From an uncultured Lentisphaeraceae bacterium (GTDB lineage Bacteria > Verrucomicrobiota > Kiritimatiellia > RFP12 > UBA1067), in assembly GCA_964406095.1 (NCBI GenBank), contig CAYOQJ010000057.1, positions 1,342 through 65,341 of the forward strand: DNA of 64,000 nt, given 5' to 3'. The position numbers and the translations under genes were made by a program. The notes beneath the pieces were generated by a model that saw only the letters and a list, made by a program, of their open reading frames with translations, made no database searches and was not told the origin of the DNA. Shown piece after piece: positions 484 through 39,148 of the stretch (the stretch's first letter is position 1; every line of letters starts with the position of its first letter).

Positions 484-3400
484 TTAAAACTTGCGGGTCA
501 CGCCGATCATACCCTGTAGCCGTTCATAGCTGGGGCTTTGAGCCCAGCGGAGTTCACTGAGCAGCTCGATATTACGGGTTAAAGTCAATGTTCCGCGTCC
601 GCGCGCGCTCCACACGAAATCCCAGCTGGTATCACGCTCCTTTGCATAACCGGCTTCGGCACTTACAAACCCTCTGAGACGCTGCCATTCGCCGCGCAGG
701 GTTGCATGCAACATGTGCTGCTGCAACTCTTCGGGGGCCCAGTATTCCGGAGGATCGCGATCGCTGTCGGCCACGCGAAAACGCCAGCCTACGCCGAGAT
801 AGGGCCACTCATTCACACGATACAGCAGACGTCCATCCAGCAGGGTTGTATCGTTGTCGTCATTGCGCATAATCTGCATTATGTCGGCGTACAGATCGAA
901 AATGTCGATCAGACGCGAGTATGTTGAAAGGCGGTATGTATCCGCATGGATATCACGACGCAGTGCTTCGACGGTTTCGATTTCATCGCGTGTGAAAGAG
1001 GGTATGATATAGCCGCTGAGCAGTGGATTCGGCAAGCGCAGCGCAACGGAACCTCCGATCAAATCATCGACATCATCCATATCCAGCAGCCACAATGACC
1101 CTGTGAACCAGGTCTGAGGCGCTAGATAGGCCAGAGTGCGCAATCCGTAGCGGGTGCCGTATTCACTGCCGATATCATCGGTGCTCCAGCGGTTGCGATC
1201 CGCCAGTATTCCGAGACGGATACGTTCGCTGACAAACATGTCGGCGTTACCGCCATATTTGAAGTAATCACGATCTTCATTATCCTGCCATCCTGTGAGA
1301 TAAAGGGTGATCTGTGATCGACGTTGCTCACGTACCCGTTCCAGTGCAGCGGGGATCATGGTGTTTTCCGGGTCCAGTTGCTGTGCGCTCAGCAGTTTTG
1401 CCCGTGCGGTTGGCAGGTCGCCCTGCATATAGGCATTCATGCCCCAGTTGAAGTTGACCTCAGTCGGATCGGCGCCATGTTTTTCAGCCTGCTGGAAAGC
1501 GGCATGGGCATCCTCGTGCTGTCCGTTCCAATAAAGCGCCCGTGCACGCTCCAGCCAGTTCAGAGCCAGGGGATGATGGTTTGTCAGATACTTGGCAAGC
1601 TGATCGGTGCTCCACTGCGGCGGCACGCTACGGGCTGGTATACGCAGAGGATTGTAGTGTTCTGATTTGATCAGAAAACCACAACTGTCAAAATAGACTG
1701 CATGTGTAAAACTATGTGCGACACTGCTGTGCAGCAGATTGAAGCTGTTCGTGTTCATATCAAGTGAAAGCTGACCGTAATCACCGCCGGGGTAAATCAG
1801 CACACGTTCGTCCCGGTTCTGCAGCATTTGGGATGCGCGTTTTAACTCTGCATCAATCCGGTTGCGGTACTCACTCTCTGTTTCGCTGTCCATCCCGGTA
1901 TGCAAAGGATGGGTTAAGGGGTTGCCCAGAATCGACTCTTTATGATCGACCCGTTGCCGTCGGCCGCCGGGTATGCCGCCGCAGGCTGGTTGCCAGCGTT
2001 TGCTTGAGAGGATAGCACGGGCGGCGGCACTCAGCGGTTTGCCTTCGAGTGTCAGCTCAGGCATGATTGTATTACCGGCATAGAGCACAGCGGCGTGGTG
2101 CTCGCGCAAAACGGGGTCGATGGCTTCTATCACCCGGGTAGAGGGATCGATCAGAACCATCATGACACGCAGTTGATCTTCTCCGGATGCGTCAATCTGT
2201 GTGAAGCGGTTGACAAAGGTGTAACCTTGTTCGGCGAGGTACTGTATGTGCTGATTGATTTGTTTCACGGAGTTACGTCCTGCATACGGTGTTCCATCGG
2301 GTGAGTTATAAACCAGGATCGGCGTAACACCCTGTTGCAGAGTATCATTTTCTTTACGCAGGATTTTGAGAGCCTGGCGGTATTTCTGTTGCTCGGCCAG
2401 TGAGTTGGCGTAGTGGCGCCATACTTCGGCGTTATGCAGTTGAATCAATGTTCTGCGGTGAGCGAGTTCAACAGCCTGCTCGACAGCCGCTGATTGTGTG
2501 GCCGCGATGCGCAGTGCCTTCAAGGATGGAACAAAGTACGGATTACGTGCGAGCAGCTCGCTGTGGAACTGAATGAGCTCATTGGTGGCAGCCATGTTCT
2601 CCAGCATCCGTCCGGCCAGCAGAGTCATCGGAACATGGCCCGGATCCTGAATCAGAAACTTACGTGCTGCAGTGAGAGTTGATTGAGCGTCAAGGCCAAT
2701 TTGTTCCCGGCTTTCGGCAAATACTCTGAGCAGAGTCCGGGATTCTTTCAGCTTGAGACCCTGATCGGCCCATTCGGCAGCCCGGCGATAATTTCCGCAA
2801 GCTGAAGCGGTTTCGGCAAGTGCTTCAAACAGTCGGTAATTCTGGATGCTTTCAGTTGCTTTCAGCAGAACTTCAATCGCCTGGTCGGGTTTGTCAAGTT
2901 TAACCAGAGTGCTTGCGGTACTGATGGTATAATAGGTTGATTCGGGATTTTCGCGTTGCAGTACTCTCCACTCTTGCAGTGCCAGGCGGTGATCACCCTG
3001 GGCGGTCAAAAGTTCAGCCAGGTAGGAGCGCAGAGTGGTTTCACCCGCCGTGACACGTTTGGCGAACCACTGTGTCTGCAGCTTTGCATCAGCGACTCTG
3101 TTTTGATTCAGGAGCGATATGAAGAGAAGCTTGCGCAGGGCAGGTTGATCAGGATTGAGAACAATGCTCTTCTGCATCAGATCAGTGGCTGCGGCGTGAT
3201 CACCATTGCGGTCGGCGCGGATGCCCTGGATGCCCTTGATGACCGATGGATCAGAGGCACGTTTTTCAAAGGAGTTTATCCATTTCAAAGGAGTTTTTTC
3301 TTCAACCTTCTCGGCCAGCAGCACCGCCCATATCCAGCAACTGTGGTCGGGGTCGCGTGCGAGCAGTTCACGATAGATGCGCAATGCCCGGGTATAATCT

Positions 3401-4773
3401 TCGCCGAGACGCAGTTTCGTTGCCGCGACTTCCAGAATCTCAGCGATCTGCCGGGTGTAGGGCTCGACGGAATTCAGTTTCACTTCAAGTTGTGCCAACA
3501 AATCCGGAGTATCTGTTTCGCTGGCATTCATTCGGAGTGTTTGCAATGCCAGCTCGGCATTTTCAGTTGAGCATTTATCCGGCGCAGAGAGCAGTGGTGA
3601 GAGATACTGGCGCAGTTCACCGAATTTTCCGTTTCGAGCGCGGACGTAAGCCAGGTTTACGCCGACAGAGGGTGTTCGGTTACCGTTTTGCCAGATGTAA
3701 TCAAGTATGGGCAGAGCAGCTTTGACCCTTTTGTGGCGAACCAGCGCGATCGCCAGTTCGGCCGGGGAGCTCTGCGGATCAGTTTTGCGCATGAATTTCA
3801 CAGCTTGTTCACTTTGATTCTCTTCTCCCAGTCGTGCGATAACCTGAAAGATCACCTTTTCGCGTTCATCCACACCGTCGTGTACAGCCTGCTTCAGGTG
3901 TTTCACGGCCGTTGCACGCTGCGAATCCTCCCACAACAACCAGCCCAGATCGCGTCGTACGGCGTGGTCATCCGGACGTTGTTTTAAAACATTACGGTAG
4001 GCCACGATCGCTTGTGCACCGTTACCGCCTTTCTGATAGAGCAGGCCCAGAGTACGCCAGGCCGCAGCATCCGCTGGCTGATCCGCCACAATACGACGCA
4101 GTGCTTCAATGGCATCTTCTTCCCGCCCCAGCCGCGTCAATGCGTCAGCTAATCCGCGCCACGAAGCTGTATCGGAGGCATCAATTGCGACTGCGCGTTG
4201 CAAAGAGACGACCGCGCTGTCAAAATTTCGCATGGATGATTGCAGTGCTCCGAGTTCACGCCAGACTGTGCGGTTTTTCGGTTTCAGTTGCACAATTTTT
4301 CTGTAGGCCTCTTCAGCTGCGACATACTTTTGTTCCTCCACCAGCCAGGTGGCCAGATCGCGCCAAGCTGAAGTCTCTTCCGGTTTGAGGTTGAGATAGT
4401 TCCGCAGTGCATCAACTGCCTGTTCGTGTTGACCGCACTGTCGGAGAGCAAGGGCAAGCCCACGCCAGGCGGTCTCATCCTTCGCGTTCATTTCGATCGT
4501 CCGTCTGAAGGCTTTGACCGACTCCTCCGCTTTGCCGCTGCGGTAGAGAGTTACGCCCAGCTGACACCAGGCGGGGGGATGCGCCGGATCCAGCTCAATC
4601 GCTTTTTCAGCGTGCTGCAGAGCTTGGCCGATTTTGTCGTCGGCTAGCGCGCTCTGCGAATTTCTGAGCAACTGAGCCACGCTGACTGCCTCCTGGCCGT
4701 TCGCAATCCCGGTGAACGATCCGATTGCGATTTTAAACAATAGAGTGCATATTAAAGTTTTATATATTTTCAT
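484..4773 (-). CDS. Giant secreted TPR-repeat / NodB-fold (CE4-like, degenerate) / C-terminal beta-barrel protein; putative exopolysaccharide export scaffold (PgaA/BcsC-like role)
   Basis: Taken from the 1486-aa ORF. I place the start at the internal ATG 4771-4773 (MKIYKTLICTLLFKIAIGSFTGIANG, a signal peptide), because the longer ORF overlaps the upstream gene. ORF residues about 85-870 are TPR-like repeats (AWxxLG, A.....AL..P patterns). Residues about 872-1110 resemble a polysaccharide deacetylase fold (VTPILVYN...YLAEQGYTF...RVLIYPGGDYG...HSFTHAVYFD). Residues about 1210-1486 alternate hydrophobic and polar positions and end in ...GVTRKF, a terminal Phe typical of outer-membrane barrels. 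Confidence 0.6.
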   Translation of the reverse strand: MKIYKTLICTLLFKIAIGSFTGIANGQEAVSVAQLLRNSQSALADDKIGQALQHAEKAIELDPAHPPAWCQLGVTLYRSGKAEESVKAFRRTIEMNAKDETAWRGLALALRQCGQHEQAVDALRNYLNLKPEETSAWRDLATWLVEEQKYVAAEEAYRKIVQLKPKNRTVWRELGALQSSMRNFDSAVVSLQRAVAIDASDTASWRGLADALTRLGREEDAIEALRRIVADQPADAAAWRTLGLLYQKGGNGAQAIVAYRNVLKQRPDDHAVRRDLGWLLWEDSQRATAVKHLKQAVHDGVDEREKVIFQVIARLGEENQSEQAVKFMRKTDPQSSPAELAIALVRHKRVKAALPILDYIWQNGNRTPSVGVNLAYVRARNGKFGELRQYLSPLLSAPDKCSTENAELALQTLRMNASETDTPDLLAQLEVKLNSVEPYTRQIAEILEVAATKLRLGEDYTRALRIYRELLARDPDHSCWIWAVLLAEKVEEKTPLKWINSFEKRASDPSVIKGIQGIRADRNGDHAAATDLMQKSIVLNPDQPALRKLLFISLLNQNRVADAKLQTQWFAKRVTAGETTLRSYLAELLTAQGDHRLALQEWRVLQRENPESTYYTISTASTLVKLDKPDQAIEVLLKATESIQNYRLFEALAETASACGNYRRAAEWADQGLKLKESRTLLRVFAESREQIGLDAQSTLTAARKFLIQDPGHVPMTLLAGRMLENMAATNELIQFHSELLARNPYFVPSLKALRIAATQSAAVEQAVELAHRRTLIQLHNAEVWRHYANSLAEQQKYRQALKILRKENDTLQQGVTPILVYNSPDGTPYAGRNSVKQINQHIQYLAEQGYTFVNRFTQIDASGEDQLRVMMVLIDPSTRVIEAIDPVLREHHAAVLYAGNTIMPELTLEGKPLSAAARAILSSKRWQPACGGIPGGRRQRVDHKESILGNPLTHPLHTGMDSETESEYRNRIDAELKRASQMLQNRDERVLIYPGGDYGQLSLDMNTNSFNLLHSSVAHSFTHAVYFDSCGFLIKSEHYNPLRIPARSVPPQWSTDQLAKYLTNHHPLALNWLERARALYWNGQHEDAHAAFQQAEKHGADPTEVNFNWGMNAYMQGDLPTARAKLLSAQQLDPENTMIPAALERVREQRRSQITLYLTGWQDNEDRDYFKYGGNADMFVSERIRLGILADRNRWSTDDIGSEYGTRYGLRTLAYLAPQTWFTGSLWLLDMDDVDDLIGGSVALRLPNPLLSGYIIPSFTRDEIETVEALRRDIHADTYRLSTYSRLIDIFDLYADIMQIMRNDDNDTTLLDGRLLYRVNEWPYLGVGWRFRVADSDRDPPEYWAPEELQQHMLHATLRGEWQRLRGFVSAEAGYAKERDTSWDFVWSARGRGTLTLTRNIELLSELRWAQSPSYERLQGMIGVTRKF

Positions 4774-4786
4774 TGTGTAAATCCTT

Positions 4787-6745
4787 TCATTTCGTGGAAA
4801 CCGAATCAATCCGTTGGATAGACCTTGGCGCTGATGAGCCTGAATTTTCAATAGATTCAATCTGAGCCAGCCGGTAGGCTGGCACCGTGCGCAACAGAGT
4901 GTTGAGCACAAATTCCGTTTTCCTGGTGTCACCATTGATAACAATTACTTCATCGCGATATTGATTAGCGGTCAAAGCACCCCACTCCATTGCCTGGGCA
5001 GGATTCAGCAGGTGAAAAACACGGTAGCCGCGGGTGCGCAGCTCGTCTGCGATTTCCGGTAATACTCCTTCGAGCATTACGGCAGGAAGCAGCATTTTCA
5101 GATCGCGTTGCTGGAGCATCTCATCAATTTCGGCAATCCACCGCACTCCAGCCGGGCTGCTTACATCGTTTCCACCGCTCAGCAGCGGATATGTATGGAT
5201 GCCTCTGACTGATGCATAGAGCAGGGTTTGTTCATCGACTCTGGAGAGTTCCGGTTTTTCGGCGGCTTTGAACCACTCCGGCACTATCGCCTGCAGTTCC
5301 TCTGGTCCGGCGGCTTTGATCTGATCCGGATGATCGGTAATCAACCAGCGTTCTGTGAGGGGTCGGGCACTGAAATCACCAGCTTCCACCACGCCTTGCT
5401 GAGCACCGATGCCCACTCGACCGCGCTGTGTGGCGGCAGAAAGCGGCAGGTTCGCAGCTATCTGATTTCCGTCCAGCCACAGCCAGGCACGATTGTTACG
5501 TATAAGCAAATGCAGTTGATACCCGCCAGATTGTTGATCTGATGGTGTGGCACGCTTACGATAGAGGGTGATCACACGATTGTCTGAACACTCCTGTACA
5601 GCTACTTCGTCATCTCTCAGAGTTACACGCAGCCAGGAGCGCGGCGACGAGGCGCGCGCGTAGAGGGATGCGATAGTTTTTTCAGTGCCCTGCATACGAA
5701 CAGTCACCTCGCAGTCGCGCCAGTTTTCAGTACCTCGTAACCAGGCGGACGCATCGCTGTTGAGATGCAACTTGTTCCGGAGTATTTCGGCGTCGCCCTC
5801 AAATCTCCACTCCGCTACGGAACCGATTGATTTCATGGCAGTAGTGCGTGGTCGGTTTGAACTCAATTCCAGCAGCAGCTGTTCGGGAGTCCAGTTGCCG
5901 GGAACACGCAGCCTGGTCAGTGTCCAGGGGTCGCTACCGGGAGCGTTGAACGCATTGGAACTTCCGATGAAAGCCAGATCAAAGTGACGTACTACAGCTT
6001 CACGATTTACCGCTTCGGCGAGTGTGTCCGCATGCACACTCTGTCCCGCATCGGCAAATGGATAGAGATAGAGCGCAACCGGGGCGGCGGATGCCTCCCT
6101 GAGCAGGCAGGCTGAGCGTTTATAGTCAGCATCGATCCGTTCGCGGAATGCCTGTGTGGTTTCAAGTTGTCCATCTGCGTACAGTATCCGCTGCGTCAGA
6201 AAGCTCCGCTTCTCCTCCGGTGCGATACTCTCCGTCGCTGTGATTGCCCGGTGTCCCATGCTGCCGATCCGCCACTGGGGCAGTTTGGTTATTCTGGCGA
6301 TATCTTTTTTGCGCATGTAAAAACTGCCCCATTTGCTCATGACAGAGGTCGGTACTGCCAGAACAGCGGTGAAACCGGTGCGCTGGAGAATCGGAGTAGC
6401 CCGGATGAAGGCCTCTTTGCGTCCGCCTTCAAATACAATCAGGAGTGCCTTCTCCGGTAGCGGGGAACGTTCATCCAGCCAGGCTCGTATATCTTCCGGA
6501 TGTACCGACTGGTAGCCGGCCTGGCGTAGGGCAGTCAACTGGAGTTCAAGTTGTTTTGCGGAGGGATAAACAGAATTACTCCTGCGTGTTATGCCGGGGT
6601 AGGATATCACAGTTACTCCATTCCAATTGCGCCAGTCAGCCGGATTGTAAGCCGGCTGGGGTGTCGGTCGTAAAATAATAAACAATACAAATGCGGCCAG
6701 AGTTGTCACAATCAACCATTGGACAACAAGCAGTAATTTTCTCAT
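4787..6745 (-). CDS. Membrane-anchored NodB-fold (polysaccharide deacetylase-like, motif-degenerate) protein with a central jelly-roll (DUF1080/LamG-like) domain
   Basis: 652 aa with an N-terminal TM helix (LLLVVQWLIVTTLAAFVLFII). A CE4-like pattern follows: VTVISYPGI...QLELQLTALRQAGYQSVHPEDI...LPEKALLIVFEGGRKEAFIRATPILQRTGFTAVLAV ... ALYLYPFADAG. The central region GYQLHLLIRNNRAWLWLDGNQIA...GRVGIGAQ looks like a jelly roll. Confidence 0.5.
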   Translation of the reverse strand: MRKLLLVVQWLIVTTLAAFVLFIILRPTPQPAYNPADWRNWNGVTVISYPGITRRSNSVYPSAKQLELQLTALRQAGYQSVHPEDIRAWLDERSPLPEKALLIVFEGGRKEAFIRATPILQRTGFTAVLAVPTSVMSKWGSFYMRKKDIARITKLPQWRIGSMGHRAITATESIAPEEKRSFLTQRILYADGQLETTQAFRERIDADYKRSACLLREASAAPVALYLYPFADAGQSVHADTLAEAVNREAVVRHFDLAFIGSSNAFNAPGSDPWTLTRLRVPGNWTPEQLLLELSSNRPRTTAMKSIGSVAEWRFEGDAEILRNKLHLNSDASAWLRGTENWRDCEVTVRMQGTEKTIASLYARASSPRSWLRVTLRDDEVAVQECSDNRVITLYRKRATPSDQQSGGYQLHLLIRNNRAWLWLDGNQIAANLPLSAATQRGRVGIGAQQGVVEAGDFSARPLTERWLITDHPDQIKAAGPEELQAIVPEWFKAAEKPELSRVDEQTLLYASVRGIHTYPLLSGGNDVSSPAGVRWIAEIDEMLQQRDLKMLLPAVMLEGVLPEIADELRTRGYRVFHLLNPAQAMEWGALTANQYRDEVIVINGDTRKTEFVLNTLLRTVPAYRLAQIESIENSGSSAPRSIQRIDSVSTK

Positions 6746-6756
6746 ATCAGGCCTCC

Positions 6757-8394
6757 TTATTTACGGGTTACCCATGCGTTATGCCAGCAGGTCAGAACAG
6801 CCCAGGGGGTTTGCCACACCAAAATGAACATGTAATAAAAGCAGAATAGCGTTCCGTAAAACCAAAGACGTGAGCGTCGGTAGAGCAGATATGTGCTGCT
6901 CATCAGGGCACTCATCAGGATTATGCCTACGATATACATCAGCGGTGAGGTGCGCTGCACTAGAGGTATGTATATCAGGGCGCGCACAACAATAGCTGGT
7001 CCCATCAACGGCAGAATGAATCCGAGATAGAATGAGAGTGCCATCAGCGGTTCTTTGCGCCACATGAAGGTTGATGCAATCAGGCTCTCTCGGAACCATG
7101 AACGCTTCCAGCGCATCTGCTGTTTGAGAAATTCGCCATGCTTTTCAGGCACCATGGTGGTGACGCGGGCTTTGGATTCATAAACCACCTTGCAGTTGCG
7201 TCGCAACAGACTGTTGGTCAGAGAGCGGTCATCACCGAAGGTGGCTGCCGTGCCCAGAAATCTTTGATTCAACCACTCCGGCAATATGGTCTGCAGCACC
7301 TCCGCGCGATAGGCTGAGATCGGACCGGAGAGACAGGTTACACTGTTGAAAATACTCTCAGCGGCCTTCATCACCCGGAAGGCGATGAAATAGCGAACCG
7401 CCTGCATGCGGGTTAGCCTGTTCGTCCATATGTTTTCAACATCACAGTGCCCGGTCACAGCCGCTACCGCCGGATCAGAGAAGCGGTTCACCAGATTGCG
7501 CAACGCCGCAGGTTCCACAAAACTGTCAGAATCAATAAAAACAACGATTTCTCCGGTGGCCAGCGCGACACCGGTAGCCAGCGCATGACGCTTGCCAGCG
7601 TTTTTATCCAGCCCCAGAATCACAAGCTCAGGGTAGATTTTCTGTGCAGCCTTCATTTTCATCAGGGTGTCGTCGGTGCTACAGTCGTCAACGGCAATAA
7701 CCTGCAGACGCTCTCGCGGATAGTCTGACTCCATCAACTGGCGCAGTGTGCGTTCGATTTGTTCCTCTTCATTGCGCACCGGCACTACAACCGAGAGGGA
7801 GGGTAGTTCGGGTAACGGTTTGGAGTTGCTGTAGAATGCCGCGAAAAGAAAGCGGCTGAGTAGGTAACTGCCGACCAGCAGACTGTAAAGAAAGACCGGT
7901 ACATCAAACCAGAAATAGTAGAAATTTTCGTATTTTATCAACAGAACAGCACTTGCGCTGGCGATCAGTACCAAGACCGCCAGAGAGCGTAGATAACTCC
8001 AGGAACTCCTTCTGTAACGCTCAGCCAAATCCTGTTCAAAGGCCACTCCGATCAGCGAAGAATCATCATTACGATGACGTACCTGCGCGTTGGTGGCGAC
8101 AACCCCCTGGATGAATTCCTCAGGCATTGCACCCTCAGGTATGCGGAATTTCACCTTTAGACGCTTTTCCTCAGGTGGCACATCCGGTGCTTCGATCAGC
8201 AGCCCACCACTGGAAATGTCGTGCACCGTGGCACCGTACTCACGTGCGTTTTTGCCTTCGCCAACAAATATGCGTATCGGAAAATCTGCCAGAAAACGCG
8301 GCGATTCGCGACGGTCGGAGTAGTTTTCGCGTGACCTCGAACGCAACCTTCTTTCGGGTACCGGTTCAGGGTATTTCTGAGTCTCTTTTTTCAT
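6757..8394 (-). CDS. PilZ-domain-fused processive family-2 glycosyltransferase (HasA / NodC / chitin-synthase-like)
   Basis: 545 aa. N-terminal PilZ motifs RRESPR (RxxxR) and DISSGG (DxSxxG). GT2 core: VVVPVRNEE...VIAVDDCSTDDT...VVFIDSDS...CLSGPISAYR...FGDDRSLTN...QQMRWKRSWFRES (a QxxRW motif with the KSxFRE extension seen in HasA/NodC). Multiple TM helices flank the catalytic domain. Confidence 0.8.
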   Translation of the reverse strand: MKKETQKYPEPVPERRLRSRSRENYSDRRESPRFLADFPIRIFVGEGKNAREYGATVHDISSGGLLIEAPDVPPEEKRLKVKFRIPEGAMPEEFIQGVVATNAQVRHRNDDSSLIGVAFEQDLAERYRRSSWSYLRSLAVLVLIASASAVLLIKYENFYYFWFDVPVFLYSLLVGSYLLSRFLFAAFYSNSKPLPELPSLSVVVPVRNEEEQIERTLRQLMESDYPRERLQVIAVDDCSTDDTLMKMKAAQKIYPELVILGLDKNAGKRHALATGVALATGEIVVFIDSDSFVEPAALRNLVNRFSDPAVAAVTGHCDVENIWTNRLTRMQAVRYFIAFRVMKAAESIFNSVTCLSGPISAYRAEVLQTILPEWLNQRFLGTAATFGDDRSLTNSLLRRNCKVVYESKARVTTMVPEKHGEFLKQQMRWKRSWFRESLIASTFMWRKEPLMALSFYLGFILPLMGPAIVVRALIYIPLVQRTSPLMYIVGIILMSALMSSTYLLYRRSRLWFYGTLFCFYYMFILVWQTPWAVLTCWHNAWVTRK

Positions 8395-8533
8395 GCTTAT
8401 CGTTCCTTTCAGAAAAACCGCATTGCCTAATCTAATTACAATGTTTTCTCATTTACACCCATTTTCGCCTATAAAGTAGGACTTTGTCAATAATGAAAAA
8501 TAGTTATTTATTTGCGGCATAAATCCTTGTAAT

Positions 8534-8550
8534 ATATCACCTTGTGATAT
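8534..8550. repeat. Perfect 7-3-7 inverted repeat ATATCAC-CTT-GTGATAT in a divergent promoter region (operator candidate)
   Basis: Read directly from the sequence. It lies in the AT-rich 272-bp gap between the divergently transcribed PilZ-GT2 gene and the first sulfatase gene. Confidence 0.25.
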
Positions 8551-8666
8551 GAATGTAGTTTTTCCAGCTGTTTTTAAAGGTAAAAAATTCAGCAAGTTCT
8601 TGTTTTATCGGTTTCAAACTGCAAAAATGTCCGTAATTGGAACCAAGGTTAAACAAAGGTGGATTG

Positions 8667-10703
8667 ATGATGAAACTTAGACATGTAACAGCTGGTTTAC
8701 TGATGTTATGCGGCAGCGCAGAAATTTTTGCGGATAATCGTCCCAACATTCTTTTTGTTTTCACTGATGATCAGCGCTACGACGCGATGTCGGTTGTTCA
8801 ACGTGAACAAGGCGAACGAGCGCGCTTTCCCTGGCTTGAAACGCCGAATATGGACAGACTGGCCGCTGAAGGTATCCGTTTTCGAAACGCCTTTGTTGTC
8901 AATTCTCTCTGTTCACCGAGTCGGGCGGTCAATCTGACTGGACGTTACAATCATCTGAATGGCATTGCATCGAACTTCCGTGACTTCCCGACTGACAATG
9001 TGACTTATGCCACGTTGTTACGTGATGCTGGTTACGCCACAGCTTACATCGGCAAGTGGCATATGGGCAGCCAGAAAGAGCGTCCCGGTTTTGATTATGC
9101 CGCTTCATTCATTGGACATTCACGATATTTCAATCCCGAGTTCATTGTCCAGGGCAAAAAGGTGCCTCACACCGGGTGGATCGATGACATCACCACCGAT
9201 TATGCGATTGACTATCTCGAGAGCCGCAAAGGTTCAAAACAGCCTTGGCTGATGACCGTTGGTTTCAAAACACCGCACGGCCCGTTTGAACCGCCGCCGC
9301 GCACTCAGCAGCACTATCAAAACGCTCGCGCGAGGGTCGTGCCCAATTTCAATGCTCCCGCACCCTACGCCAACGAGAAATTCAAGCAGAGTGTCGCTGG
9401 GCGTGAGTTGGGGGAAACAACCAGAACCAACCTGGGTTACTTCCGCTGTCTGACGGCGGCTGATCAATGTTTGGGGCGTTTGCTGGAGGCTGTTGATCAG
9501 AACGGGTTCCGTGACAACACGGTTGTGATCTACACCAGCGATAACGGTTTTTATTTAGGTGAACACGGATTGGGCGATAAGCGCAGCGATTATGAAGAGA
9601 GTCTGCGTGTACCCTTCATCGTACGTTACCCTCCCTTGGGCGACGCGGCCAGCGGACGCACCTGTGACCGTATGGTACTCAATCTCGATTTACTTCGCTC
9701 TCTGCTTGATTTTGCCGAGGTTGAACCGCCTAATCAGATTCAGGGTCGCAGCTGGAAGCCGCTACTTGTCGGTGATGTTGAGGATTTCCGCAAGTCCTGG
9801 TTTTTCGAATATTTTGCGGAGGCGCAGCGTGGCTCACGCATACCGGATATCTATGGAGTACGCACGGAGAATTCCAAACTGGTGGTCTATCCCGGTCATC
9901 CAGAGTGGACGGAGATGTTCGATTTAGCTAAGGACCCTTACGAAATCAATAATCTCTATAACAATGCTGAACACGCCGCCATGCGATCCGGTTTGGAAAA
10001 GGAGTTGGAGCGATTGCTCAGGGAGGTTGAATATGTGGTACCGGAATACACAGACCGCCCCTATTGGTGGGGTCTGCCTGGCGGAGCGGACTGGAAACCG
10101 GATGCCACACCGCATCTCAAACTAGAGATTTTACCAGCGGGACTGAACGGTAGGATGGTGACCAGTTCAGTCAACAGAGATGAGCGTGCCGAAGTCAAGA
10201 ACAGGGTCAAGGTGGTTGATACCGGAGATCGGCTCCAAGCCTTTGATTTCAGTGGCGGCGGCTTTATCGAGGTTGGCAAACCAGCTTCAATTGACCCATC
10301 GATGAAGGCTTTCACACTCGAGGTTGCGGCGAATATCGATGGTTCAGGCAAAGGTGTGCTGGTTGGCAGCGGTGGCGCCTCACTCGGTTACTGCCTTGCG
10401 GTCAAGCAGGGGCGTGTGCTTTTTGTTGTTAATGCAGGCAACAGACCTGTAGTTCTTAAAACCGCGAAGCCTCTGAAGGGCTGGATCAATATCAGTGCCA
10501 TTTTATGTGCCGATAAGTCGGTGGAACTGCTCGTAAACGGCAGGCGCGTTCAACGCAAACACGTAGCCGCCTTTATCACAAAGGTGCCGAATGACACCAT
10601 GCAGATCGGAGCGGACAAGGGTAGCCCCGTGTTGGAAGAACCTCTCGGTCAATTCAAGGGGCTGATCAGAAGCGTCAGGTTTTACAGTGGTGAAAAACGA
10701 TGA
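8667..10703 (+). CDS. Formylglycine-dependent sulfatase with a C-terminal LamG/concanavalin-like domain
   Basis: The ORF track starts at TTG 8637. I prefer ATG 8667 (MMKLRHVTAGLLMLCGSAEIFA, a signal peptide, with an aaaggtgg RBS upstream). Motifs: NILFVFTDDQRYD and the Cys-type active-site motif SLCSPSRAVNLTGR. The C-terminal part (FTLEVAANIDGSGKGVLVGSGG...LLVNGRRV...IRSVRFYSG) is Laminin_G_3-like. Confidence 0.85.
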   Translation: MMKLRHVTAGLLMLCGSAEIFADNRPNILFVFTDDQRYDAMSVVQREQGERARFPWLETPNMDRLAAEGIRFRNAFVVNSLCSPSRAVNLTGRYNHLNGIASNFRDFPTDNVTYATLLRDAGYATAYIGKWHMGSQKERPGFDYAASFIGHSRYFNPEFIVQGKKVPHTGWIDDITTDYAIDYLESRKGSKQPWLMTVGFKTPHGPFEPPPRTQQHYQNARARVVPNFNAPAPYANEKFKQSVAGRELGETTRTNLGYFRCLTAADQCLGRLLEAVDQNGFRDNTVVIYTSDNGFYLGEHGLGDKRSDYEESLRVPFIVRYPPLGDAASGRTCDRMVLNLDLLRSLLDFAEVEPPNQIQGRSWKPLLVGDVEDFRKSWFFEYFAEAQRGSRIPDIYGVRTENSKLVVYPGHPEWTEMFDLAKDPYEINNLYNNAEHAAMRSGLEKELERLLREVEYVVPEYTDRPYWWGLPGGADWKPDATPHLKLEILPAGLNGRMVTSSVNRDERAEVKNRVKVVDTGDRLQAFDFSGGGFIEVGKPASIDPSMKAFTLEVAANIDGSGKGVLVGSGGASLGYCLAVKQGRVLFVVNAGNRPVVLKTAKPLKGWINISAILCADKSVELLVNGRRVQRKHVAAFITKVPNDTMQIGADKGSPVLEEPLGQFKGLIRSVRFYSGEKR

Positions 10704-16995: not shown

Positions 16996-18402
16996 GTGCG
17001 GTTTAAATCTTTGATTTTTCTTGGTGGATTGTTTGTATGTGCGATGTGTGGTTCAGCTTTGAGTGCTGAGCGGCCGAATATCCTGTTTTTTATCACCGAT
17101 GATGAGAGCTGGCTGGAACGCAGTGCCTATGGCTGGTCCACATTGCCGACGCCGCACTTTGATCGTGTGGCGCGTGACGGGGTTCTTTTCACGCAGGCCT
17201 ATACATCGGCGCCCTCTTGCGCGCCCTCTCGGGCTGCAACGCTGACCGGACGCAATTTCTGGGAGTTGGATCAAGGGGCCTTCATTCAGGCCTGGGTGCC
17301 GGATAAATTCCCGGTCTTTCCCGATTTGCTTGCGCGGGCCGGTTACCATATCGGTCATACCGGTAAGGGATGGGGGCCGGGCGTTAGTCCGGAGGGAGCG
17401 CACAAATCACCTTCTGGACCGAGTTACAACAAAATTACAATTCCCAAAGAGCGGCGTATAAAACACATGTCGCCGATTGATTATGCCGCTAACTTCAAAG
17501 CATTCCTGGAAGTACGTGGAGAGGATCAGCCCTTTTATTTCTGGGTCGGCACACAGGAACCGCATGGTCCCTACGATCAGGAGAACTACAAGCGTCTCGA
17601 GCGAGAGTTCGGTTTCAAACTTGAGGATATCTCGATGCCGGCATTTATGGAGGATACACCGCAGACCCGCCGCGCACGCGCCAACTTCCTGTATGAAATC
17701 TGTTACGCTGATGCCCAGCTTGGCCGAATTCTCGCAACTCTGGCTGAAAGTGGTGAACTGGACAACACCCTGGTCTTTGTAACTTCGGATAACGGTACGG
17801 CCATCGGGAATTTTGCCAAGGCCTCGCCGTATGAGTGGAGCTGTCATGAACCGCTGGCGGTGATGTGGCCGCAACGGGTGCCCGGAGGACGCACTGTGAC
17901 CGATTTTGTTTCTTTCCGTGATTTCGCACCAACAATACTCACCGCCGCCGGAGTTGATCTGCCTGAGAGTATGTCCGGTGCCTCTTTGCTGCCGCTGCTC
18001 TGTTCCGGGAAGAGCGGACGAATCGAAGCGGATCGGAACTTTATTGTGCATGGGCTTGAGTGGCATGGCGAATTTGATCCTGCCAGTCGTTCCCACCGCA
18101 CTTATCGAAATGATCGCTACGCCTACATCGTGCGCTATTCCAACAAGCTGCCTGCTGAAAACGGGATAGCCGCCAATGCCGAGATAAGCTCCGAAGAACT
18201 TTATGATATACAGCAGGACCCCTGGCAGCGTGAAAATTTAATCGGCAATCCTGAGTACGCGGCGATTTTGAAAGAGCTGAAATCCGAGTTGAAAAAGTAT
18301 GCTCTGAAAACCGGTGACCCCAGATTTAACGGCAGAATGAAGGTTTTTCGGGAGACCCGCGCTTTTGTTCAGGAGCGTAAACGCGGAGGCTATAAACGCT
18401 AG
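16996..18402 (+). CDS. Formylglycine-dependent sulfatase
   Basis: The ORF track starts at GTG 16912, inside the terminator hairpin. I prefer GTG 16996, which is preceded by gagg and gives the leader VRFKSLIFLGGLFVCAMCGSALSA followed by ERPNILFFITDDE. Active site: SAPSCAPSRAATLTGR. Confidence 0.85.
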   Translation: MRFKSLIFLGGLFVCAMCGSALSAERPNILFFITDDESWLERSAYGWSTLPTPHFDRVARDGVLFTQAYTSAPSCAPSRAATLTGRNFWELDQGAFIQAWVPDKFPVFPDLLARAGYHIGHTGKGWGPGVSPEGAHKSPSGPSYNKITIPKERRIKHMSPIDYAANFKAFLEVRGEDQPFYFWVGTQEPHGPYDQENYKRLEREFGFKLEDISMPAFMEDTPQTRRARANFLYEICYADAQLGRILATLAESGELDNTLVFVTSDNGTAIGNFAKASPYEWSCHEPLAVMWPQRVPGGRTVTDFVSFRDFAPTILTAAGVDLPESMSGASLLPLLCSGKSGRIEADRNFIVHGLEWHGEFDPASRSHRTYRNDRYAYIVRYSNKLPAENGIAANAEISSEELYDIQQDPWQRENLIGNPEYAAILKELKSELKKYALKTGDPRFNGRMKVFRETRAFVQERKRGGYKR

Positions 18403-18461
18403 CATCCATTCTGCCGACATTTTGTTTATTAAAATTAAGTCTTTGCGTGAAGGAGAGTAAG

Positions 18462-20351
18462 ATGCGTGGATTATTGATTTTTGTGACGGTGCTTGTTTTA
18501 TTTAGCACCATGCTGGAAGCGCGGCAGGATCGTCCGAACATTGTCTGGCTGACAACCGAAGACAACTCGGCCTGCTGGTATCAGCTCTATAATCCTGAAC
18601 AGGGTGCATCTATGCCCGTTATCGAGCGTCTGGCACGTGATGGTATTGTGTTCAACAACGCCTACTCATGCGGTGCGGTTTGTTCAGTGGCCCGCAGCAC
18701 GATTATATCGGGCTGCTATGTGCCGCGTCTGGGTGCTCATTGGCACCGCCGCCAGGTGGCGGTGCGGATGCCGGAAAATCTCCACATGTTTCCCTATTAT
18801 CTGCGTCAGGCCGGATACTACACCGCAAACAACCGCAAAGAGGATTATAATTTCGACTCCGCCGACAAAGCCGGGGTCTGGGATGAATCCTCCGGCAGGG
18901 CTTCATATCGCAAGCGCAAAGCGGGACAGCCCTTTTTCTATGTTCAGAATTTTATGGAGACTCATGAGAGCAAGCTGTTCGCGGCTCTACCGAAAGGGGT
19001 TGCGCGCACTGTTGATCCTGAGCAGATTAAACTCTTTCCCTATCACCCCGACACACCCCTTTTCCGTGATAAATACGCCCAGTATCTCACCCTGCACAGC
19101 TATGTAGACCGTTTGATCGGCCGGGTTGTTGAGCAGTTGGAGGAGGATGGTCTGCTGAATGACACCTTTATCTTTCATTATGGCGATCATGGTGGTGTTC
19201 TGCCCGGCGGCAAGAGTTACGCCCGCAATGATGGACTGCAGGTGGCGATGGTGGTGTATGTGCCTGAGAACTGGCGACATCTGGCACCGGTGAAGCGTGG
19301 GTCGCGCGTGGATGGTATCGTTGAGTTTGTTGATCTCTCTGCCACGGTGCTACAGCTGGCCGGTGTTGCTATACCTCCTGAAATGGATGGCAGACCCTTT
19401 ATGGGAGCTGGAGTTACACTTGATGATCTCAACCGGCGTGACACCGCTTTCGGCCATGCCGACCGTTTTGACGAGAAGTATGATATGGTGCGCTTTCTGC
19501 GTAAGGGAAAATATACCTACTGGCGTAGCTACCAGCCATTCAACTTCGATGGCCTGTACAATTTTTACCGTTATAAACAACCGGCGTTTCGTGAGTGGCG
19601 TGATTTGGCTTTGAATGGCACACTCAATGACGCTCAGAGTGCTTTTTATCGGGCGCGTCTTCCCGAATCGCTTTTTGATATTGAAAAGGATCCGCATGAG
19701 ATCAACAACCTCGTTGCTGATCCGGCTTATCATGAAATTTTGATGGATATGCGTGAGTCAATGCGCGAACGTGTCAAGTCGTTGCCTGATCTGGGATTCT
19801 ATGCCGAGCCGGAGTTTCTGCGACAGAGCGACGGCAATGGAAAATCTTTTGGAGAAAGACATAAAGAGCAGATTGGCACTCTGGTCGATATAGCTGATTT
19901 GCAGTTGCATCCCTTTCCTGAAGCAAGTTCCAGGATCGCTCAGAGTCTTGGTTCGCCGAACGCGATGGAGCGTTACTGGGCCCTGATAGTCTGTTCGGCT
20001 TTCGGCAAACAGGCTGCTTGTTTTTACGATCAGGCGCGGGATTTGGCGCAATCCGATCCCAGCCGCCTTGTGCGTTGCCGTGCTGCGGAGTTCCTCGGTT
20101 TGACCGGTGTGTCTGATCCTATGCCGTTTCTTTTCGATGTGCTTGATCAGACAACCGATCCGATCGAGGCCAACTTGATCCTCAATACCGTTGTGTTGCT
20201 ACGTGACGCTTCAGGCTGGACGGTGAATCCGGATAAAGTCAGAGCTTCCCGCTGGGCGAAACTGGGTGGACTTGTCAAGCACCGGGTCGATTATCTCACG
20301 GGCGGCGACGGTGATCCTTCGACTTCCCGTAATAAAACTAAGAAAAAGTAG
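18462..20351 (+). CDS. Sulfatase-family protein with a non-canonical active-site motif (C-S-V-A-R) and C-terminal HEAT-like repeats
   Basis: Start at ATG 18462, preceded by aaggagag (MRGLLIFVTVLVLFSTMLEA). Motifs: RPNIVWLTTEDNS and active-site region YSCGAVCSVARSTIISG (codons 18681-18695). C-terminal repeat region: ERYWALIVCSAFG...RCRAAEFLGLTG...EANLILNTVVLL. Confidence 0.8.
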   Translation: MRGLLIFVTVLVLFSTMLEARQDRPNIVWLTTEDNSACWYQLYNPEQGASMPVIERLARDGIVFNNAYSCGAVCSVARSTIISGCYVPRLGAHWHRRQVAVRMPENLHMFPYYLRQAGYYTANNRKEDYNFDSADKAGVWDESSGRASYRKRKAGQPFFYVQNFMETHESKLFAALPKGVARTVDPEQIKLFPYHPDTPLFRDKYAQYLTLHSYVDRLIGRVVEQLEEDGLLNDTFIFHYGDHGGVLPGGKSYARNDGLQVAMVVYVPENWRHLAPVKRGSRVDGIVEFVDLSATVLQLAGVAIPPEMDGRPFMGAGVTLDDLNRRDTAFGHADRFDEKYDMVRFLRKGKYTYWRSYQPFNFDGLYNFYRYKQPAFREWRDLALNGTLNDAQSAFYRARLPESLFDIEKDPHEINNLVADPAYHEILMDMRESMRERVKSLPDLGFYAEPEFLRQSDGNGKSFGERHKEQIGTLVDIADLQLHPFPEASSRIAQSLGSPNAMERYWALIVCSAFGKQAACFYDQARDLAQSDPSRLVRCRAAEFLGLTGVSDPMPFLFDVLDQTTDPIEANLILNTVVLLRDASGWTVNPDKVRASRWAKLGGLVKHRVDYLTGGDGDPSTSRNKTKKK

Positions 20352-30995: not shown

Positions 30996-33900
30996 TCACT
31001 CTGATTCAAATTGTTCCAGAGATTCAATCGTCTCGCCTACTCTGATACGCAGCCGCATCAGCTGATCGGGATTATACATATTTCGGCCTGAGTAGCGTCC
31101 TCCGGCATTGGGTATTTCACAGAAACTCAGAAATGCAGCAAGCAGATCATGTGCCGCTTTATTGTTGTGACGCTCGGCAAGCTCAGAGAGTTTCCGCAGG
31201 TACGACCAGTCTTCAACTCCGTCACGGGCTGCTTCGATACGGATTGATGTGACCGGTTCGGCGCCAGCTCCTGTTTCTGGTGTCGGGGGGTATATCAGGT
31301 AGCCGTCGCCATTGGGATAACGCACATGATAATACTCTCCGGGGGTGCTTGCCTGATTGATATAGGTGTGCCAGCCAAATTCCCAGGGATTATGGGTGTA
31401 CCAGCTTACCCCCCAGAATTCATAGACATCGACACCGTATTTAAAGGCGTAGTGCGGTAGCATACGTTCGGTTGCGAGCAGAGGGGTGTCGGTGCACATC
31501 TGGCCATCGGTTGTAAACCAGAGCTGATTGCCGATCTTCCGTTGACGTTGCATCTGTTCGACAGAAAAACAGCCGTAGTGACCGATACCCCAGACATCAA
31601 TCGCGTCGTCCCACTCGGGGCAGTGACGCCAGGTGCTGCTGTAGATGCGGATGGCGGGATCGACGGCATGAATCATATCGCAGCAGGCGCGCATTTGATC
31701 AACGATATGTTGATGTGAGAAGTGCGGTTCATCCGAGATATACAAAATGAAATTATCGGAACGGCCCCTGGCTTTAATATGGTTCCAATAAAGGCGCAAC
31801 GCCTCCTGATAAACCTGTTTATACTGTGGACGCAGTTGCGATCGGTCTACACTTTGGTATGGGTATTCTCCCTCGTATGGTTCTTCGCCGAGAAACTTAC
31901 GGGGTGGATGACCCCAGCCGAAGATATTGAAATTGTGTGGCATATACGAGACTCTAAATTTGAGTTCATCAAAGTAGAGTTGGCAAGCTTTGTCATATGC
32001 GGTGAAGTCGCAGGTCACTTTGCCATCCGTATCGCGTTTCAGCGGGATGTGGCTTTGAACTGTGTCGGGCGACAACTTTTTTGCTGCCAGAAAACGCAGA
32101 ATTTTTTCACGGGCTTGGGCTCGATTGCGCCAGTTGGTGAAATCAATATTGCGGAAACGTACATCATAGATAGCAGAAAATTCGGGATTTTCCGGCAGAT
32201 CAAAGTCCCAAACCGTGACTTTAAACGGGCGGTTCAGAATTGTCCGGGTTCCGGCCTTGATCCGTATTTCGCCCTGATACTCACCGGGGGCGGTGTCGGT
32301 GTTGCTGTTGAAGGTGATCCACAGCGGCTGCGTACGGTTGGCGGATAATCTGAATTCAGCTGTGCTGAAGATCGGGTCGGGCCACCATCCTGGCCATCCG
32401 TCGGAGCCGTTGCGCTGCTGCGGATATTTGAATTCCCACTCCGGTGTGCTGTGGTTGCTGTAGCAGGAGGTGGTGTCGATCGGCACAAAATCCACCCGTC
32501 CGATTGAAAAATTATTCAGCACCGACTCTGAATCGGTATGGTGTTGACTATCAGATTCGGTCAGACGCTTCCAGAGTTTGGCCAGCGTGGAACCGCTTTT
32601 TAGAGAGGGAGCGGAAATTTCTATTTTCAAATCCTGCAAATCCACACCGGAACGCAGAGCCAGTTGCAGTGGTTCACTCTCATTTCGGGCCAGGTGAATT
32701 TCAATCGGTCGGTCTTTAACAGGCGGAAGTGTCTCACGGAAGAGTTTGACAATCGGATTAACCTGCCAGAGTTTGATTTCTTTCTCCTGAGGTCTAGTTT
32801 CAGGTTCGCCAATGGTTGTGGTTAGACACTCCGCCATCAGGAAGCCGTCGTGACGCATCATGCCGCTGCAGTTGGCGGTGAGATGCAGCGAAAAGGAGTC
32901 ATAACGCCGAGGAATTGTGATGGCGCTGAACATTGGAGTCCATTCGGTGTTGCCTGAAATAGGCGTTCCGGCTGAAAGAAAGATTGGCTTGGCTTTACGA
33001 TCCTGGGTTGAGTTGAGGTGGACGTGCAGATGACCGGTCGCAGCGAAGTTTTCCGTTGCCATCCATCCACCGAACAGGTATGTCGAGGAAGGTTTGACAG
33101 ATATTGTCTGGCGCCATCCGTGCCAGCCTGTTTTGGCTGATTCGGAGATACGGCATTCCGCGCTGTATCTGTTGAAAAGGGCCTTAGAGCTTTTATTGTG
33201 CACAACACCCGGCACAGTGTCGGATTGTCCGGAAATATACCAGTCGTCGGGTTGCGCTTCTCCCTTTTCAAAGTCCGGATTTCTGATCAGGTTTAAATCA
33301 CTTGCCAACATTCGTTTGTATTCCGCCAGATCAATCTCGTTGTCGCGGAAAAGAGCCAGTTGATCAGAGGGGATGTCACTGCCCTCAATACTACCGCTCA
33401 GCGTCCTGTTTTTCGGCTTTGCACCGGAATCGGCTACATAGAGATAACAGCGTTGTACTTTCTGCCGGTTGACGGGCACTCTGAACAGCAGCAGGTTGGT
33501 TAATCGGCAGGTTTCAATTTCTTCACCGTTGAAGGTTACTCTGAAAATCGGCGTGTGAATGCCGCGTTTTAGCAGAGCGGTTTCGATAAATACCGGCATC
33601 TCGGTGCCTTCGACGGCATCTGCTGAGGGCAGGATATTGATGGGAAAACGCATGTTCCAGTTTTCAATCCCGGGCGGAGGGGCGATCCAGGCTGCCTCAG
33701 TGCCCTCGATCTGAATATCCAGATGTTCAACCGGCGTGGTGGTGATCTTCAGCTTCACGGCATTATGAACCGGTTTGTCGCTCTCAAATCGCAGATCATC
33801 AAACCAGGCAGTACCTGATCCGCGTAGCAGCGATCCGGTGCGTATTATGGTGGCATCGGGCGGAACTGTAAAGCTGATCATCAGTTCGTGCCACTCAGTT

Positions 33901-34865: not shown

Positions 34866-34955
34866 TCGTGCCAACACCTTATTACCTCTGCGCGTTGTCA
34901 GGATTGATAAGAAACACGTGACTTTTGGTGAATTTTTGATTTGCAGGAATTACGC

Positions 34956-36878: not shown

Positions 36879-36929
36879 TCCCATTTTATCGGATTACTGA
36901 ATTCAGCGTTGAACGATGAGGATAAATTT

Positions 36930-37784
36930 ATGCTTAAAGAACAGACACCTTTAATTCATGAGGGTATCCGTAGCAGCTATGCTGATGCTGATCTGGTGGT
37001 TGTAGGGTATCCTTATGACGGCACCGTTTCCGGTAGGTCTGGAACCCGCATGGGCCCCCAGCATGTTCAAGCCGAACTTGATGCGCTGGAAACATGGAGT
37101 CCCTACCAGCAACGTGATCTTGTGGATTTTAAAATCTGCGATCTTGGCAGCATGGCGCTCACATACGGCAGTGTCGAGCGTGTGGTGGAAGCGGTTAAAG
37201 AGGAGTCCCTTGATATTATGGCCGACAGCAAGCTTATTCTTGGTGTCGGCGGTGAGCATCTGATAACGCTGGGGTTGATCCAGGCGGTCGCACAAAAGCA
37301 TCGCAACCTGCAGATTATTCACTTCGATGCCCATGCCGATCTGCGTGACGAATATCTGGGGGCAAAATTTTCGCACGCCACCGTCATGCGTCGCGTGCTG
37401 GAGACTCTCGGCTCGGGTGGACGACTCTGGCAATTCGGTATCCGTTCAGGTACACGGGATGAGTTTGAGTTTGCTGAACGTTATGCCCGAATGCGCTGTT
37501 TCGATCTGGCTGATATTGAACAGGCAGTGGCTGAAATCGGTGATGATCCGGTATATCTGACTATCGATCTGGATGTACTGGACCCAGCGATTCTTTCAGG
37601 CACCGGTACGCCGGAGCCGGGCGGTGTAACCTTCAAGGAACTGTTGGATGCTCTTTTGAAACTGCGGGAACTCAGGATAGTAGGCGCCGATATAATGGAG
37701 CTGGCACCGCTGCTGGATTCCAGCGGGGTGTCAACTGCGGCTGCCTGCAAAGTGCTGCGTGAAGTGGCATTGTTAATGGTTTGA
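36930..37784 (+). CDS. speB: Agmatinase (ureohydrolase family)
   Basis: Start at ATG 36930, preceded by gagga (the ORF track begins at TTG 36909). Mn-binding motifs: GGEHLIT, IHFDAHADLR, LTIDLDVLDPA. Confidence 0.85.
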   Translation: MLKEQTPLIHEGIRSSYADADLVVVGYPYDGTVSGRSGTRMGPQHVQAELDALETWSPYQQRDLVDFKICDLGSMALTYGSVERVVEAVKEESLDIMADSKLILGVGGEHLITLGLIQAVAQKHRNLQIIHFDAHADLRDEYLGAKFSHATVMRRVLETLGSGGRLWQFGIRSGTRDEFEFAERYARMRCFDLADIEQAVAEIGDDPVYLTIDLDVLDPAILSGTGTPEPGGVTFKELLDALLKLRELRIVGADIMELAPLLDSSGVSTAAACKVLREVALLMV

Positions 37785-37837
37785 GCAGTATCCGATAAAT
37801 CAGCAGAAAAATAGGTATAAGAAGTCAGGAGAAATAA

Positions 37838-39037: not shown

Positions 39038-39148
39038 AACCCCGCAGAAAAGAGAGAATTTGAAACCACGAAAAACACGATTTTTCACGAAAAGAGAGAG
39101 CTGCCGCCGTTAAACACCGTCAATAAGGTCAGCAAAAATCCGCTAAAT

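Follow-up and report, generated by a model that had tools for sequence, protein, structure and literature searches.

We analyzed a window of 64,000 nucleotides (the whole stretch of DNA studied here) on contig CAYOQJ010000057.1 of an uncultured Lentisphaeraceae bacterium and found at its left end an operon of four minus-strand genes, which probably encodes a synthase-dependent exopolysaccharide (EPS) pathway gated by cyclic di-GMP (c-di-GMP), as judged from the domains, motifs, and modeled folds of its products. The genes encode a synthase of 545 amino acids (aa), in which a PilZ domain is joined to a glycosyltransferase family 2 (GT2) domain (6757–8394), a middle protein of 652 aa (4787–6745), a scaffold/exporter of 1429 aa counted from the ATG at 4773 (484–4773), and a fourth protein, cut by the window edge, of which the 5' part (157 codons with a PAS domain) lies at 1–471. 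The gaps between the first three genes are 11 nt (6746–6756, synthase/middle) and 13 nt (4774–4786, middle/scaffold), and the open reading frame (ORF) coordinates thus agree with an earlier note on this DNA that had described a module of three tightly spaced genes at 484–8394. Although the three genes stand, the left boundary of that module was too tight, because the ATG of a further gene in the same direction lies at 471, 12 nt past the scaffold stop codon, which makes the unit one of four genes. The mechanical ORF of the scaffold reaches upstream to a TTG at 4944; AAAGGA precedes the ATG at 4773, and the JGI gene calls on the source contig likewise give a scaffold of 1429 aa. Related operons were collected by scanning one genome per species, which gave 73 loci, followed by tblastn and ORF extraction.

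In the synthase, an N-terminal PilZ domain is followed by two transmembrane (TM) helices, the GT2 domain, and a membrane region at the C-terminus, which ends in W(G)TR. Pfam matched both PilZ (PF07238) and GT2, placing the former at aa 27–130 (8005–8316; 43 bits against a cut-off of 22.5, E = 6e-11) and the catalytic domain at aa 198–431 (7102–7803), and the N-terminal position that the earlier note had assigned to the c-di-GMP receptor module was thereby confirmed. The PilZ motifs RRxxxR (R28, R29, and R33) and DxSxxG (D59, S61, and G64) are intact and are conserved among 68 synthases (R28 in 66, R29 in 66, R33 in 67, D or N at position 59 in 68, S61 in 66, and G64 in 68). The GT2 motifs are DxD (D288-S-D290), CLSGP (354–358), GDDR (387–390), within the sequence GDDRSLTN at aa 387–394, and QQxRW from aa 425, within the sequence QQMRWKRSWFRES at aa 425–437. 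Their residues are kept in at least 67 of the 68 family members, with D237, D288, D290, C354, D388, D389, R390, Q425, Q426, R428, and W429 being invariant. Judging by these motifs, the c-di-GMP site appears to be canonical and the enzyme to be active. The family also conserves an Arg-rich stretch before RRxxxR (P9, R15, R16, R18, S21, and R22, within aa 1–26; window 8316–8394) and, inside the PilZ domain, an invariant 'MPEE' motif (G88/P91/E92), neither of which is included in the textbook PilZ signature.

For the relationship of the synthase to known enzymes, the best NCBIfam match was the NodC model (TIGR04242), with 179.4 bits over aa 187–545 against a cut-off of 550; the PgaC/IcaA model (TIGR03937) gave 129.3 bits against 422.3, the CelA (BcsA) model (TIGR03030) 37.9 bits against 699.1, and Chitin_synth_2 of Pfam 73 bits. 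When the single sequence was compared with solved structures, hyaluronan synthases (HAS) were the best matches (1e-36). A family profile of 15 sequences likewise had HAS as its best PDB matches (E = 6.5e-52), giving 180 bits with Xenopus HAS1 and 167 bits with the Chlorella-virus HAS, compared with 49.5 bits for BcsA and at most 39 bits for chitin synthases. The HAS profile alignments span aa 116–547, that with HAS1 starting at the pair of N-terminal TM helices and reaching the C-terminal WGT motif, and Bacillus cereus HasA has a pairwise identity of 32.8% over aa 213–544. In these comparisons, among solved structures, HAS are far nearer to the synthase than are chitin synthases or BcsA, and the view that its signatures are of the HasA/NodC type rather than the PgaC or BcsA type holds, with the motifs quoted for it present.

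The middle protein is a membrane-anchored periplasmic protein with an N-terminal TM anchor (aa 2–25). Sequence searches on it gave weak PgaB matches only (TIGR03938, 49 bits against 322; PDB 3vus, 2e-06), and its domains were delineated with an AlphaFold2 model based on a 52-sequence alignment (pLDDT 91.3, pTM 0.89) and with Foldseek. They are a degenerate PgaB-like NodB domain (aa 40–300; 5846–6628), a ConA/galectin-like β-sandwich (aa 310–470; 5336–5818), and, from the AlphaFold2 model, an α/β domain (aa 471–652; 4790–5335). Foldseek matched the NodB domain with the N-terminal domain of PgaB (PgaB-N, 3vus), IcaB, BpsB, and PplD, with a target-normalized TM-score (TMt) of approximately 0.8 and a root-mean-square deviation (rmsd) of approximately 3.2 Å, and the sandwich with galectin, CBM66, and GH16-type folds. 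The sandwich beside the α/β domain presumably resembles the CBD-flavodoxin modules of BcsB.

The fate of the active site in the middle protein was followed by profile alignment to PgaB and column counts over 68 orthologues. The catalytic acid H55 of PgaB is replaced by A, G, or P and is never H, the catalytic base D114 by E (68/68), the metal ligand D115 by G (62/68), and the metal ligand H184 by G (68/68), and the metal ligand H189 is variable; on these alignments, the CE4 metal site is gone throughout the family. The FEGGRK motif of the protein is almost invariant, and within the dead site E106 and R109 are invariant and K110 is found in 65 of the 68 sequences, being otherwise R. This near-invariance argues for a conserved, non-canonical role of the NodB domain, which would be polymer binding. 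Longer orthologues (approximately 925–950 aa) were observed in two Aminicenantes loci (L015 and L030) and in a locus from a metagenome-assembled genome (MAG) labeled as Clostridia (L024), and the one in L030 (6025–8802) carries a SPOR peptidoglycan-binding domain between the β-sandwich and the C-terminal domain.

The scaffold begins with a signal peptide, which is followed by a TPR array (aa 30–800; 2374–4686) matched by Pfam TPR models above their thresholds. An AlphaFold2 model of aa 790–1429 was built on nine sequences, because a homologue search with the C-terminal fragment gave only eight proteins, and has a mean pLDDT of 79. It consists of an α/β domain, which is a degenerate NodB-like domain (aa approximately 815–1055; 1609–2331), five or six TPR-like helices (aa 1056–1150; 1324–1608), with Pfam TPR matches at aa approximately 1070–1140, and 16 β-strands forming a barrel (aa 1154–1429; 487–1314) with pLDDT mostly at or above 87. 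The Pfam scan of this C-terminus gave TPR matches and no named barrel model. By Foldseek, the five top matches of the scaffold were all EPS exporters, namely BcsC (three entries), PelB, and PgaA, led by BcsC 9b8a (E = 3e-12), BcsC 6tzk, and PelBC 9h80_M, and the comparison with PgaA 4y25 gave a TMt of 0.74 and an rmsd of 4.1 Å. The prediction of a single protein of about 1430 aa that unites TPRs, a NodB fold, and a C-terminal barrel ending in Phe was thus supported, the barrel included. Among 59 orthologues, 46 end in F and 8 in W, and the scaffold of the window ends in Phe.

The α/β part of the scaffold was matched by Foldseek with PplD, PgaB-N, and BpsB, and the alignment of its profile with that of the middle-protein NodB domain by hhalign (probability 99.8%, E = 3e-30, 241 columns) indicates that the two domains are paralogous. 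The scaffold domain is without a DD motif, and no more than one of its His residues is semi-conserved; accordingly, the NodB folds of both proteins are degenerate, as had been supposed, and have lost the catalytic and metal-binding residues of CE4 enzymes. The idea that PgaA-like and PgaB-like roles are merged in the scaffold was supported with respect to architecture and not with respect to catalysis: the exporter is merged with a PgaB-like fold, not with deacetylase activity, because the scaffold domain is without catalytic residues. An active deacetylase in either protein was considered and rejected, the metal and catalytic residues of PgaB being replaced in the family-wide alignments. In a contig from a sister sample (L075), 161 nt are missing within the barrel-coding region (window approximately 627–771; L074 15975–16120), which causes a frameshift and shortens the scaffold to 1346 aa, and another contig (L077) ends at exactly this deletion point; the deletion could reflect a breakpoint of the assembly or a genuine variant in the population, in which the exporter would be inactivated.

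The fourth gene is complete on the source contig (JGI Ga0643560_000041, 92.7 kb), where it encodes a protein of 565 aa with PAS, GGDEF, and HD_5 matches. In its sequence, an RxxD I-site precedes GGDEV by five residues, and HD and GYP motifs are present. The protein is 91% identical to the product of L001:19712–21409, L001 being the 94%-identical Kiritimatiellae relative. GGDEF-domain genes adjoin the operon in 13 loci besides the window. The co-transcribed PAS-GGDEF-HD-GYP protein is probably a source or sink of c-di-GMP. In L001, a gene with intact Polysacc_deac_1 and CBM_2 domains (17951–19660) lies between the scaffold and the PAS-GGDEF-HD-GYP gene. A counterpart of this CE4-CBM2 gene was sought and not found, either in the window by tblastn or downstream in the source contig.

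In the mechanism that we propose, the local c-di-GMP level would be set by the PAS-GGDEF-HD-GYP protein, and c-di-GMP would bind the cytosolic PilZ domain directly before the first TM helix and relieve inhibition of the GT2 domain, as suggested by the motifs and by analogy with BcsA gating. By homology with class I HAS, we infer that the synthase polymerizes a UDP-sugar and itself forms the TM channel through which the chain is threaded. In the periplasm, the chain would pass to the middle protein, which is anchored in the inner membrane and would bind or guide the polymer instead of acting as an enzyme. The approximately 800 aa of TPR in the scaffold would span the periplasm, with the paralogous dead NodB-like domain placed by the modeled fold at the mouth of the barrel, and the polymer may leave through the 16-strand barrel, which is modeled as being of the BcsC/PelB/PgaA type.

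As for the product, we looked to the accessory genes, which were identified by clustering all ORFs that flank the operon loci. An intact CE4 deacetylase adjoins the operon in 20 loci of several phyla, in three of them with CBM2; a GH18-like hydrolase whose (D/E)xDxE motif is intact does so in 11 loci, in addition to Paenibacillus (described below); and a gene for a GHL10 protein does so in seven loci. GH18 enzymes act on β-1,4-linked N-acetylglucosamine (GlcNAc) by substrate-assisted catalysis, CBM2 binds crystalline β-1,4 glycans, and CE4 enzymes remove acetyl groups. On this sequence evidence, the product most likely contains GlcNAc. These partners, together with the HAS/NodC-clade synthase and the PgaB-derived domains, favor a chitin-like chain, and we regard as evenly balanced the more specific proposal that the product would be a β-1,4 chitin-like chain, partly deacetylated in lineages with an intact CE4 partner. 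Somewhat more tentatively, the operon may represent an unrecognized widespread pathway in which a PilZ-fused, HAS-like enzyme, controlled by c-di-GMP, secretes a chitin/chitosan-like β-1,4-GlcNAc EPS with the aid of two pseudo-deacetylase domains for polymer handling.

Several points weigh against the reading of the operon as a gated pathway for secretion of such a polymer. Binding of c-di-GMP, the identity of the polymer, and its export are predictions. Searches of Pfam and of PDB sequences gave no significant match for the C-terminal α/β domain of the middle protein, and no structural match for it emerged from the Foldseek search with the whole model. The NodB-like part of the scaffold model is of modest confidence (pLDDT approximately 50–90 on the nine-sequence alignment). 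The loci come mostly from MAGs, and their taxonomic labels are approximate. In the window locus, neither an intact CE4 nor an intact GH18 gene was found in the 64 kb or in 5.7 kb beyond the scaffold, and the inference about the product therefore rests on relatives. Finally, the nearest solved enzymes to the synthase make hyaluronan, a heteropolymer, and not chitin.

This last point bears on the possibility that the product is a hyaluronan-like or other GlcNAc-containing heteropolymer instead of a chitin-like homopolymer, which we consider unlikely. The best relatives of the synthase are indeed hyaluronan synthases (180 bits with Xenopus HAS1 and 32.8% identity with B. cereus HasA), JGI labels family members hyaluronan synthase, and it may be speculated that E106, R109, and K110 of the dead NodB site bind an acidic polymer. 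However, substrate specificity is not readable from sequence, chitin or chitosan is a better fit for the GH18, CE4, and CBM2 partners, and neither the annotated ORFs of the window nor the annotated recurrent neighbor clusters include a gene for UDP-glucose 6-dehydrogenase or any other nucleotide-sugar gene. The class I HAS, which include the Chlorella-virus enzyme, vertebrate HAS1, and streptococcal and B. cereus HasA, are like the synthase membrane-embedded processive GT2 enzymes and share with it the motifs DxD, CxSGP, GDDR, QQxRW...FRE, and WGTR as well as the layout of two N-terminal TM helices, a GT domain, and a C-terminal TM bundle. They differ in having no PilZ domain, no known control by c-di-GMP, no TPR/barrel exporter, and no NodB-like partner, and they continue past the W(G)TR motif, at which the synthase family ends. 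Bacterial has operons, moreover, carry the UDP-glucose dehydrogenase gene that is not seen here.

To our knowledge, few synthase-dependent EPS systems have been characterized, namely those for cellulose, poly-N-acetylglucosamine (PNAG), alginate, Pel, and Nfr. The features of this general class that are present here are a GT2 synthase with a TM region, a PilZ receptor, and a TPR-barrel porin. As for a periplasmic modifying enzyme, the NodB-like domains of the window are degenerate, and the intact CE4 and GH18-like genes flank 20 and 11 related loci, respectively, and not the window. All scores with the curated equivalog models for PgaC, PgaB, PgaA, BcsA (CelA), BcsC, and NodC fall below their thresholds; for the PgaA model (TIGR03939), the score was 52.9 bits against a cut-off of 366.65, only the fold being similar, and for the BcsC model (NF008520), it was 20.8 bits against 858. 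An ordinary pgaABCD or bcs locus was rejected on these scores, which are far below the cut-offs, and on the domain order, which differs; the claim that the combination is unlike the named systems is thus upheld. The operon works like the Bcs, Pga, and Pel systems, yet it is a member of none of them.

The Pga system shares with the operon the synthase-dependent logic, a GlcNAc-type GT2, a PgaB-like NodB fold, a TPR region with a 16-strand barrel, and c-di-GMP dependence, which is predicted here. However, c-di-GMP is sensed in Pga at the PgaC–PgaD interface, whereas the operon has a fused N-terminal PilZ domain and no PgaD, for the gene of which there is no space because the gaps are only 11, 13, and 12 nt. 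PgaB has an Asp-His-His metal site and a GH153 C-domain, whereas the middle protein is without both, its C-terminal part being a sandwich and a small α/β fold, and the exporter itself, unlike that of Pga, contains a NodB-like domain. That the operon could nevertheless be a divergent pga-type system, making β-1,6-linked PNAG with PilZ replacing PgaD as the c-di-GMP sensor, is suggested by the NodB-like domains, which are both most similar to the PNAG deacetylases PgaB, IcaB, and BpsB, by the good superposition of the barrel on PgaA (4y25, TMt 0.74), and by the match of the PgaC_IcaA model to the synthase (129 bits). Yet this match lies below that of NodC (179 bits) and far below its cut-off of 422; GDDR and the C-terminal W(G)TR of the synthase are features of HAS and NodC, and its alignment with HAS includes the TM region; and the recurrent partners, GH18-like hydrolases and CBM2, act on or bind β-1,4 chains. 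With the loss of the PgaB metal site and the absence of a GH153-like C-domain added to these, a PNAG system appears to be quite improbable, more so than a heteropolymer.

Compared with the remaining systems, the operon shares with Bcs a PilZ domain fused to the synthase and an exporter with TPRs and a 16-strand barrel, BcsC being the top fold match. In BcsA, however, the PilZ domain is C-terminal and the motif is TED, whereas the synthase has an N-terminal PilZ domain and GDDR, and the NCBIfam scan of the operon proteins gave no BcsB match. With Pel it has in common a CE4-fold module tied to a TPR-barrel exporter, PelBC 9h80_M being among the top fold matches, whereas Pel uses a GT4 enzyme (PelF), a degenerate GGDEF receptor (PelD), and PelA, a separate, active deacetylase/hydrolase that docks on PelB; unlike PelA, the CE4-like fold of the operon is catalytically degenerate and fused to the exporter. 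NodC is a GlcNAc β-1,4 transferase of the GT2 clade of the synthase and differs in making capped oligomers and in having neither a PilZ domain nor an exporter. In searches of the full-text literature, neither the operon nor a GT2 synthase with an N-terminal PilZ domain was found to be described, and in public annotations the family members are called 'glycosyltransferase', 'hyaluronan synthase', or 'hypothetical protein'. The 'bacterial chitin synthases' that have been described (PMC5122149) form a separate set, which was acquired from eukaryotes and is without PilZ.

Of the loci surveyed, 63 extend far enough downstream for the gene order to be judged, and 59 of these have the order synthase–middle protein–scaffold. 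The loci span at least eight phyla, with labels including Kiritimatiellia, Verrucomicrobiota, Lentisphaerae, Aminicenantes, Thermodesulfovibrionales, Acidobacteriota, Gemmatimonadales, Syntrophorhabdus, and Solidesulfovibrio, and the nearest relative, 94% identical, is from Kiritimatiellia. The earlier note had suggested a survey of neighborhoods across genomes of the Planctomycetes–Verrucomicrobia–Chlamydiae (PVC) bacteria; the conserved order reaches beyond this group, and the operon is not specific to PVC bacteria. Cultured carriers are Solidesulfovibrio magneticus, S. aerotolerans DSM 16695, and S. alcoholivorans DSM 5433. A megaplasmid of Paenibacillus cellulositrophicus KACC 16577 also carries a PilZ-GT2 gene (42% identity) together with a GH18 gene and a homologue of the middle protein; upstream of these lies an intact tandem CE4. 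No scaffold gene was found in this megaplasmid locus, which is as expected because Paenibacillus is monoderm and has no outer membrane, and the scaffold is also missing in one of the two Clostridia-labeled MAG loci (L070).

It is very improbable that the GT2 makes NodC-like short chito-oligosaccharides or a periplasmic or cell-wall glycan, with an unrelated role for the TPR-barrel protein: NodC is the best NCBIfam match and a SPOR domain occurs in middle-protein variants of Aminicenantes, but the three genes are nearly contiguous and keep their order across phyla, the best matches of the barrel are specifically EPS exporters, the absence of the scaffold from Paenibacillus and L070 fits export across an outer membrane, and the alignment of the synthase with HAS includes the channel-forming TM helices.

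In a full HMMER scan, the profile of the middle protein gave 976 clusters (50% identity) at E ≤ 1e-30, of which approximately 100 are full-length; the number also covers the paralogous domain of the scaffold and other architectures in which the NodB-plus-sandwich module occurs. Many proteins of approximately 1250–1340 aa (P0302–P0341) open with a middle-protein-like NodB-plus-sandwich module followed by approximately 800 further residues, and these may belong to further variants of the system. In two loci from Kiritimatiellia/Verrucomicrobiota (L033, 13577–15166, and L014), the middle gene is followed by a gene for a TPR-only protein of 529 aa, near which no NodB-like domain or barrel was found; the exporter of these loci may be encoded elsewhere.

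The characterized EPS systems frame most thinking on biofilm matrices controlled by c-di-GMP, and the operon presents the same logic built from different parts, in poorly studied anaerobic and environmental phyla in which it is common. If the proposed pathway is correct, a dedicated bacterial secretion machine of the chitin type would stand alongside Bcs, Pga, Alg, Pel, and Nfr. A chitin- or chitosan-like product would add a bacterial source of such polymers and would also provide a c-di-GMP-gated relative of hyaluronan synthase for mechanistic work. Because there are cultured carriers, namely the three Solidesulfovibrio species and P. cellulositrophicus KACC 16577, the hypothesis is directly testable.

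The 242-nt region upstream of the synthase contains one reasonable −35/−10 match, which is sigma-70-like (TTGACA, 18 nt, GAAAAT; 8461–8490, minus strand) and constitutes weak evidence; in both the promoter and the terminator scans, the counts were not above those of shuffled sequence. An Rfam search of 8350–8700 for a c-di-GMP riboswitch or another RNA upstream of the synthase gave no match at E ≤ 1.

Elsewhere in the window, an ORF of 579 aa at 60434–62173 has no Pfam match. Directly upstream of the operon and on the opposite strand, the region at 8637–29703 contains five Sulfatase/SGSH_C genes, two of them with Laminin_G_3, together with two FAD oxidoreductases, a protein with a pectate-lyase fold, and two radical-SAM genes, one with a SPASM domain, which are candidate anaerobic sulfatase maturases. 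Such richness in sulfatases is typical of sulfated-glycan degraders among the Kiritimatiellia, and the region appears to have no relation to the EPS operon. Further glycan-degradation genes at 30996–34664, 46494–47546, and 47773–48990 encode GH123 with CBM_4_9, a protein of the 3-keto-disaccharide hydrolase family (DUF1080), and an alpha-L-fucosidase. A polyamine-type cluster at 34941–40306 encodes an arginine decarboxylase and arginase-family (agmatinase-like), saccharopine-dehydrogenase-like, and Orn/DAP/Arg-decarboxylase-like proteins.

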